From NCBI GenBank assembly GCA_951406725.2, contig OX597820.1:94984001-95048000 (forward strand): a DNA stretch of 64,000 nt, written 5' to 3'. Shown in pieces: positions 52,201-55,200 of the stretch. Positions within the stretch are counted from its first letter, which is position 1; each line of letters begins with the position of its first letter. The stretch is from Octopus vulgaris. Its lineage: Eukaryota. The notes under the pieces are model-generated. The model saw nothing but the letters and a program-made list of their open reading frames with translations, was not told the DNA's origin and ran no database searches. Both the position numbers and the translations under genes were made by a program.

Positions 52201-55200
52201 TTATTACTTAGTTCGTATTTTCTTGCCTTCATTTTTTTTTCAGCTTACAATGTCTGCTTCTACTACTATACATGATAATATATTCACAAACGTCGTTAGA
52301 AGTCCAATGAGCTTCTTTGACAGCAATCCTCCAGGAAGAATCATGAATAAATTTTCGAAAGAACTAGATGAAGGTGAAGTACCAAAGTAACTTAGTTACA
52401 AAATCTTACATTATATTTCAGCGAAGAATGTTTTACGAAAAACTAAGAAAAATAAAAGGACAACCAAATATCATGGAGCAGACAATATTCTCATGAATAT
52501 GATTTGGGATGACAAACATACTTAAAATTACAAAACAATTAGCTAGTTCTAAAACCTCTAAACGGGATATAAGTAGTAACAATACTAAACGGCAACGTTT
52601 ATTTGCCACTAGAACATGGCTGCCCTATAAAGAACTGTTACTACATTTTAACCCCAGGGAAACGTCTTTTCCAGCTGGTTAACGACACAACCTGTGTCCG
52701 ATATATTTTAAGAAAGCGAGTTACTCCCCTTCAGCTTGGCAAAACCAGTAGACCATGGTTTCTGAGTCTTTACCCTTCATCAGTACTGGACACCTGCCTG
52801 CTAGAGATTGCAGTCAGTCGTCCCCATTCACAATATTGTGCGTGCCATTTCTAGCAGGCAGATGTCCAGTACCGATGAAGGGTAAATACCCAGAAACCAT
52901 GGTCTACTTGTCTTGCCAAGCTGGAGGGGAATGATTCGCTCCCTTACTCACAATATATCGGACATAGGTTGTGTGTCATTAACCAGCTCAGAAAGACATT
53001 TTCCTAGGGTTAAAATGTAATAACATAGTTCTTTATAGAACAACCATGTTATAGTGGCAAAAAACGTTACAAAATAATTACTATTTCATTATACTTCGTA
53101 ATTTAGCAAATATTCGTAAAAAAAATGGCTTTAACATTACATCTTTCAATCACAAGTTCTTGAGGAAAATGTGTCCTTTTAGTGTTCATACGAAATATTT
53201 TATTGAAATGCTGCGATTTAATAAGATAGTCCATTTTTTACATTTTTATTTTGTTTTGTTTTGTTTTGTTTTTTCCTCTCTTATATTTCTCCTTTTTATT
53301 CCTTCCAGCTGATTACACATTACCGCAGTTACTGGATATATTACTTCAGGTGTTTATGCAATTCGTGATTTTAGCTATTATGTCTCTCCAGACTAATTTG
53401 ATGTTTATCATTGGATTCGTCTTAGCCTTTATCATAATGTATTTGCTTCGCTATATATCAATTGCGGCCGTACGACAATTGAAGCGACTGGAAAACCTCA
53501 AGCGCTCAGTTTTACTTGGTCACGTCAATACAACCACCAACGGACTTGTGACAATAAACACATTCAACCAAAATGAATTTTTCTTCAAAAGGTTTGCTTT
53601 ATTGGTTATTTATTAATTATTTAATATTTGCTATTAAGAAATTTGCTTCACAGCCATGTGATTTGGGGTTGAATTTCACTGTACAGAACTCTGAACGTCT
53701 GTAATAACCCCGGACCGACCATTGCAGTGTCAGTAAACTACGTAGGCGGAAACTGTACGGAAACCTATTATATATGTGTATGTGTGCATGAATTGGATTT
53801 GTTCTTTTCCTCAATATTTCATAACCGTTGTCGGTTTCTTTACATTCTTTTATGGAATGAAGCGGTTCAGTAAAAAAAAGTTCGATAGAAGAATAACCAG
53901 AGTCAAAATTAGTTCTGGGATCGACTAAATCTTTCAAAACTATGTCCAAACATGGTCGCGATCCAATGACTGAAAATAGCAAAACAATAAATAAAAAAAA
54001 AGAAGAGAGAAAAAGTATCGAGATCTCTTCGGAAAAAATGAAAATCACGAAAGATTAACATTTTTAATACAACATATTTCTTTGTACGTGTGCGTGCGCG
54101 TGGTTTTTCCTTTTTCTATTTATATTCAGGTCCAAAGACTATATGATATACGTCTGGCAAATGGCATTCTTAGAAAATTTTCTCTAGTCATTGCTTTAGA
54201 CAATCTTAAATCCCTTAATTGGTAAATAATCTTTACACCAAAATTATACCTTCTTTGTTATGATCTGTTGACTAATACGGCTGAAACATGTCAAGAGTGG
54301 TCACTAAACTGACTAACGATCACACACCAATTCATGTCTGCATTTAATTTCTAATTTAAATTTTGGAATTCTCTCCCTTGACTTTGAAAAAAATTGTCAT
54401 AAACGCTAACTTCTTTTTATTACTACTTTGATTTCAGTTAACTATAAATCATGTTTGGCGCACTATATTAATTATATTAGTTCCTATTTAACTACGTAAA
54501 TGTTATCTATGCATAGCCTATTATTTGTTTTGTTGTCGTTGTTGTTTGGTAACATTGACCAGCTCTAACTGATTAGATATTTTCAATCACATAAATATTC
54601 GATCCGTGTAACACAGGTATAACACAGGTTGTGAGATAACCTTTTAGTAATAATGATGATGACAATGACAATGCTAATGATGCTGTTGTTTTTTCACTTC
54701 AGATTTTGTTACCACCACGATGTCGTGTGCTCAGTGGAACTTCTGTTCGATTTCGCCCTCCGTTGGGTGGGAGTTCGGCTAGATCTTACTTTCATATGTA
54801 TTTTCGTAGCAGCGGTTTATATTTTTGCTCTCGGTAAAGGCACAATTTCCCCTTCGTTTGCAGCTATGACATTGAACTTTTTAACGCAGGTAAGCATTTT
54901 CCTGTATGTAGATGGTGGTCAATATACATTGTTTTACTCTCATGGGAAAAAGATAGAAAGTTAGTGAAGATTATCGTAAACTGAGGAGCAAGGTCCTGGA
55001 GAGTCAAGTAGGCTTCACGATTTCTACTCAAAGTTTTCATCCTACTTACATAAGATAAGACTCTTTACTGAAAAACTTGAAGATCACAATATTGAATTTA
55101 CTCTCACCTTATTAATATGACATATTTGGTTTTTCCCCAAATTTTATTTCCATAAATTGGTTACAACAGAAATATGACAGAATGCAGCAACACCCCAACA

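Follow-up and report, generated by a model that had tools for sequence, protein, structure and literature searches.

The window analysed here is a 64,000-nucleotide stretch of Octopus vulgaris contig OX597820.1, and the element of interest lies in a phase 1, GT..AG intron of 935 bp (52374-53308, plus strand) of an ABC-transporter gene. Both flanking exons match ABC_membrane (PF00664) and are in frame when spliced, in agreement with an earlier sequence-only reading, which had placed a fold-back element in a 0.9 kb intron between two TMD2 exons. The inverted arms of ~215 bp described there were borne out. They lie at 52599-52812 and 52843-53064, are 85-87% complementary over four ungapped inverted blocks, and fold into a hairpin with a minimum free energy of -303.7 kcal/mol (z -29.7; none of 100 shuffles matched it). 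The proposed limits needed revision. Instead of beginning at 52594, family sequence reaches ~55 bp further left as a tail on one side only, giving a true extent of ~52540-53070, and instead of an unrelated spacer of ~30-45 bp, the left copy extends inwards as far as 52836 and is followed from ~52838 by the right copy, the two being joined at a palindrome.

The insertion consists of two 5′-truncated copies of a repeat designated family A. The left copy (52598-52836, minus strand) covers unit positions 106-352 and is extended by a tail of ~60 nt (52537-52597, minus strand; unit positions 1-61) that ends at a position termed 3′ end site B. The tail matches a natural family copy at 93% (nhmmer E 3e-13), and the left copy including the tail, 308 nt, matches the family majority at 90%. 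The right copy (52838-53072, plus strand) covers unit positions ~111-352 plus 1-6, ends at 3′ end site A and has no tail. The 5′-to-5′ inversion junction is a perfect 12-bp palindrome (52829-52840), just after which ~14 bp are missing from the right copy. A target-site duplication (TSD) flanks the insertion, with maximal extents of 52528-52541 and 53067-53080 (14 bp with one mismatch, overlapping the element end by a few bases), whereas a duplication of at least 14 bp was found in 0 of 930 control flank pairings.

An assembly artefact was rejected, considering that the arms differ at ~15% of sites and that both insertion junctions are bridged by contigs from an independent run labelled organism C. 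An empty-site allele was not seen in any of the four sequencing runs, in which contig gaps are uninformative. A MITE or fold-back DNA transposon was also rejected, as the ends are unequal and most copies are not inverted, and so was a miRNA, the Rfam scores of which were far below the gathering thresholds. Elsewhere in the same intron, at window position 52404, run X8 (labelled organism D) carries a 14-nt insertion; its contig stops at 52477, before the element.

Each strand of the hairpin carries a type I hammerhead motif exactly where the sequence-only reading had placed it, and no hammerhead-core match arose in 100 shuffles of the window. The minus-strand motif (52745-52789; core match 52751-52783) has a CUGAUGA core and a predicted cut 3′ of 52751. 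The plus-strand motif (52866-52910; core 52872-52904) has the family-majority CCGAUGA core, a predicted cut 3′ of 52904 and one mismatch in helix I, leaving five of six pairs. The Rfam search proposed earlier as a check found no hammerhead family at E<=1, either in the window region or in four further family loci; the matches that it did return, miRNA-like ones among them, were below threshold. Helix I is 6 bp, helix II is 4 bp, and helix III is the short palindrome ACCAUGGU. By the definitions in PMC4209133, the family A hammerhead is a canonical-like type I motif with core variants; thus, in the earlier label of "minimal type I", the type holds and the word minimal does not. The variants are U4C and, at the base of helix II, an A.A apposition in place of the usual G10.1-C11.1. 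U4C is described as lowering hammerhead activity in vitro yet supporting viroid infectivity (PMC3088659), and the helix sizes suit a dimer. The remark that stem II differs between the arms and still pairs was correct, the pairing being kept through G-U; it does not amount to covariation, however, because the difference is a single C>T transition, present in 7 of the 62 copies that cover the site.

Forcing the hammerhead fold within the full hairpin costs 67.5 kcal/mol on the plus strand and 72.9 kcal/mol on the minus strand, compared with ~7 kcal/mol in a single arm. Because the arms stand head to head, each motif is transcribed after its own complement, whichever strand is read, and with only one motif per strand there is no second same-strand motif for a cis dimer. 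The window ribozymes are thus predicted by folding to be switched off, contrary to the earlier idea of a viroid-like rod with a working ribozyme on either strand.

Using one arm as the query, we obtained 621 first-look candidates in the same genome, 40 of which were scored. A 34-nt motif had 8 exact matches genome-wide and occurred in 2 of 97 copies not picked by the motif; these counts suggest, as a rough estimate, a few hundred hammerhead-bearing copies. Candidate loci were fetched (116), and after 28 overlapping duplicates were dropped, 88 loci remained. They were chosen by similarity to the queries, and the fractions reported below are therefore sample values rather than genome-wide estimates. 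Two pairs, L170/L171 and L152/L153, share flanks or have identical element extents (C30/C31 and two places on C5); they are either segmental duplicates or haplotype copies and were counted as separate loci.

The family A unit is 352 nt long with a GC content of 44% (43.8%), contains no ORF and one hammerhead, and occurs in tandem. It is circularly permuted, because the sequence downstream of the arm equals the sequence upstream. Circular folding of the unit gives -132.5 kcal/mol (z -6.5, 60 shuffles) and a long rod that has the hammerhead at its tip. Copies had a single orientation at 60 of the 88 loci and were inverted 5′ to 5′ at the other 28, and hammerheads were present on both strands at 13. 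A segment longer than one unit was found at 37 loci, and two same-strand hammerheads in one segment at three, the longest run being 2.4 units; no long retrozyme-type array occurred among the 88 loci. No two loci share an inversion junction, and most junctions have 0-10 nt of overlap or a short filler, indicating that the mirror half was made anew at each insertion. Inversion at this locus is therefore not a one-off: it recurs in the family and is a known insertion pattern of Penelope-like elements (PLEs).

Contigs of the runs with organism labels C, D and E contain the family as well. The earlier view of a non-autonomous, retrozyme-like element is supported, in the form of a PLE-related family with many copies. 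The suggestion that it might be undescribed also stands: no paper was found that names family A, although Repbase, Dfam and the supplements of the retrozyme papers lay outside the search and the family may be catalogued there. Apart from the family, a hammerhead-like CCGA(C/U)GA...GAAA motif was seen in two unrelated loci (L043:200 and L017:1109) and may mark a further repeat family with a U4C-type core.

The outer 3′ ends of the copies fall at two discrete sites. Among 116 such ends, 48 were at site A and 37 at site B, compared with 9.2 and 7.6 expected; the arm query forces matches to reach site A, not to stop at A or B. Site B lies ~58 nt beyond site A, and the interval between the two peaks is nearly empty. 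When both ends of an inverted locus were at these sites, one was at A and the other at B in 14 of 15 cases (p=3.9e-4), a count that leaves out 13 of the 28 inverted loci, which have at least one end elsewhere. This one-each pairing fits two-strand priming. It also appears to be new, in that no paper was found reporting such pairing of 3′ ends. A microsatellite followed within 30 nt at 50 of the 85 site A or B ends and in 373 of 2904 control windows (12.8%), and a TSD of at least 10 bp was found at 5 of 31 clean-flanked loci compared with 2% in the controls. The 5′ ends showed no enrichment near the predicted cut site (3 of 128, 4.7 expected), indicating that hammerhead cleavage left no footprint. 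Consistently, none of the 93 segments that end at A or B stops at the cut site: 78 extend past it and 15 are shorter, within the bias of queries that contained the hammerhead.

The copies decay as neutral DNA would. Divergence was 22.5% at CpG sites and 8.8% at non-CpG sites, and at all 13 CpGs both C>T and G>A were common. At hammerhead position 4, C was found in 84 of 107 copies and T in 19, and the next base had changed from G to A in 15. The majority of C together with these CpG changes indicates a CCGAUGA core in the master, and the CUGAUGA of the left arm, which had been taken as the full core, likely arose by CpG deamination. Even with any base allowed at position 4, the motif is kept in only 43 of 104 complete motifs and the core is broken in 61. 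Arms of one locus are no closer to each other than to arms of other loci (82.9% and 82.5% identity; p=0.44), although they share somewhat more derived changes (15.8% vs 7.5%), and the window arms, with 14 and 12 non-CpG changes, share none. These results argue against selected ribozymes on both strands. The family A core had 76 changes against 97 in a base-matched expectation, a weak difference that is confounded by the use of hammerhead-containing queries to pick the loci. The best copy of at least 250 nt matches the family majority at 92.8%, and the family looks extinct.

A sister family, B, was first traced from loose contig ends. Its unit of ~359 nt is 69% identical to that of family A over the unit, and a 25-nt motif of this family has 130 matches with at most one mismatch. 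Among the loci studied (L156-L215), the two 3′ end sites are repeated, and inversions occur at 18 of 56 loci. The core, CUGAAGA, is canonical, with G10.1-C11.1, and helix III is longer than in family A; in copies selected without reference to the core, T is found in 25 of 26. Of 22 helix pairs compared between the two majorities, three change on both sides, three on one side and none breaks; the pairs were mapped by hand and a MAFFT alignment, which misregistered bulges, was left out. Because of these compensatory helix changes, the master RNAs of A and B were likely under selection, which concerns the masters and not the window copies. Three loci (L160, L181 and L184) match both majorities poorly and may represent further subfamilies.

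No RT plus GIY-YIG ORF lies in or adjoining the element. The genome contains 6136 GIY-YIG candidates, including many intact 781-aa RT+GIY-YIG ORFs with a CX4CxxC linker. Such a linker is ascribed to Neptune (PMC8557442). No sequence in common with unit A (blastn and nhmmer) or unit B (blastn) was detected in 39 of these GIY-YIG loci, and the autonomous partner thus remains a putative one. PLE protein matches were found by tblastn at 3 of 88 family A loci, where they belong to different PLE families and lie 600 bp or more from the element, and at 3 of 56 family B loci, where they were not taken as partners. The intact 781-aa ORFs belong to a young Neptune-type family (L069:2745-5087 and L043-L068), the pseudo-LTR (pLTR) of which has tandem repeats, a hammerhead of its own that differs from that of family A, namely a U3-A8 variant whose palindrome is CAUG, and a sharply defined 3′ end at (TA)n, to which an extra extension of ~35 nt is added in some copies. 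We take the tandem repeats to be CCAAT-box and TGACGT-like motifs. A short motif lies ~14 nt before the (TA)n end of this family and is also present near site B of A and B, a resemblance noticed post hoc that serves as a lead only. Another PLE family (L042:2377; L070:5721) has a minimal hammerhead motif ~600 nt after the GIY-YIG domain.

Taking these results together, we consider that the hairpin represents two 5′-truncated, back-to-back copies of a dispersed, ORF-less 352-nt hammerhead repeat, likely placed in a single insertion by the RT/GIY-YIG protein of a PLE, probably of the Neptune clade, acting in trans, and that it is likely an inert fossil. We assign this reading a probability of roughly 85%. 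A master locus would be transcribed as a multimer, or dimeric hammerheads, formed through the palindromic ACCAUGGU helix III, would process the RNA into a structured circle. The PLE protein would then cut AT-rich or microsatellite DNA on both strands, and each cut end would prime a separate cDNA, starting at either of two internal initiation sites ~58 nt apart. Finally, the two truncated cDNAs would be joined at their far ends, often through microhomology. Priming on two strands followed by end joining would account for the head-to-head arms, the one-sided tail and the short duplication of the target. The proposed chemistry has a biochemical precedent, as a PLE protein is described that cuts and extends both strands, uses two internal start sites that define the tail, and is predicted to act as a dimer (PMC11167929).

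A further-reaching version goes beyond what we would defend at even odds. Here, A and B would be two extinct sister retrozyme families that record full PLE integration in hundreds of fossil copies, in which a dimeric RT primes both target strands at different internal sites and leaves one tailed and one untailed end. One of the families would have amplified with a near-dead core (U4C and no 10.1-11.1 pair), implying either that cleavage was assisted by a dimer or a protein or that it was dispensable for retrozyme spread. The PLE hammerhead itself is described as protein-assisted and dispensable (PMC11167929).

The same family and enzyme could also have produced the mirror half by snap-back, that is, self-priming of one cDNA, or on an antisense template, rather than by priming on both strands. 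The palindrome at the window junction is what such a mechanism would leave, the excess of derived changes shared by arms within a locus points the same way, and for head-to-head PLE palindromes an antisense template with self-priming is favoured over two-strand priming in PMC3846280. However, most junctions join two different unit positions with a short overlap or filler and are not palindromes, and simple snap-back does not by itself predict different sites at the outer ends. We therefore regard self-priming as unlikely, though far from negligible.

It is quite improbable that the repeat is the orphan pLTR, the 3′ end, of an extinct autonomous PLE, with all copies heavily 5′-truncated and no separate non-autonomous master. 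All insertion hallmarks are PLE-like, pLTRs carry hammerheads (PMC4209133), and a preprint derives retrozymes from pLTRs (10.64898/2026.07.22.740005). Yet what lies upstream of a family A unit is another family A unit instead of ORF sequence, the PLE protein matches are few and scattered, the whole unit folds as a structured circle, and the helix sizes are those of retrozyme hammerheads and not of minimal pLTR ones.

There is still less to be said for co-option by the host, in which the intronic dsRNA would affect the ABC-transporter transcript as an ADAR editing substrate or a source of small RNAs. The pre-mRNA would contain a duplex of ~230 bp at 160-240 nt from both exons, and contigs of a run labelled as another organism also join the insertion to its flanks. 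But its divergence equals that of other copies, no compensatory changes are present between the arms, and the host-strand mismatches (15 A.C and 7 G.U) indicate no drift towards pairing. The idea that mobility or replication belongs to the palindrome as a whole, acting as a viroid-like rod whose two strands each carry an active hammerhead, is barely credible: its fold is very stable and its two-stranded motifs recur at 13 of 88 loci, but most loci have one orientation, no two junctions agree, the arms are not homogenised, and the rod both penalises the hammerhead fold and lacks a cis dimer.

On the preferred reading of a PLE-mediated insertion, the window locus itself is most likely inert, and its value lies in what the families record. 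A retrozyme-type unit is tied to PLE insertion chemistry through its tails, inversions and targets, which supports a PLE origin of animal retrozymes by non-phylogenetic evidence. The one-each pairing of 3′ ends is a countable genomic prediction for the use of two in vitro initiation sites, and in the A/B sister pair nature has set a canonical hammerhead beside a core variant in one scaffold. There is also a caution, in that PLE inversion can produce a rod with ribozymes on both strands, which is what usually flags a viroid-like RNA. Viroids of the Avsunviroidae and viroid-like RNAs likewise fold as rods and have a hammerhead motif in both polarities. The window hairpin differs from them in that an inverted DNA duplication accounts for its symmetry, the antisense of each motif is transcribed before the motif, and the copies diverge like neutral DNA.

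Closer parallels are found among PLE inserts. These are described as head-to-head inverted, 5′-truncated pLTRs with a tail at one end, a junction palindrome, a TSD of 8-10 bp and a bias towards (TA)n (PMC3846280, PMC8557442). Family A shares with the inserts described by Arkhipova et al. 2013, Craig et al. 2021 and Frangieh et al. 2024 the inversion, the one-end tail, the palindrome or microhomology at the junction, the TSD, partial tandems, AT-rich and (TA)n targets, and two discrete 3′ ends. It differs in having no ORF, in a tail of ~58 nt rather than the 30-40 nt described, and in a partner that was not found in the 39 GIY-YIG loci. In Schistosoma mansoni, dual hammerheads 100-700 bp apart on opposite strands are likewise reported and read as truncated PLE products (PMC4209133); those motifs are minimal (helix II of 7-8 bp, helix I of 4-5 bp), whereas family A has canonical-like helix sizes. 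For octopus, Penelope expansions are described in PMC8967140, the account of which notes no ribozymes, and the main text of PMC7229834, in which non-LTR retrozymes are defined, does not mention octopus.

It is these metazoan non-LTR retrozymes (PMC7229834, 10.64898/2026.07.22.740005) that family A resembles most in its unit. As described there, they are ORF-less, 150-450 bp long (350-390 in mussel) and below 50% in GC, with one type I hammerhead per unit, a 6-bp helix I, a 4-bp helix II and a short palindromic helix III; they also fold as highly self-paired circles, have a TSD of more than 4 bp and coexist with PLEs. Family A departs from them in its mostly dispersed copies of 0.6-1.6 units, about a third of them inverted, with no long arrays seen, in the U4C and A.A of its majority core, and in its apparent extinction. 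Judged from sequence and predicted folds, the family appears to work like a non-LTR retrozyme.
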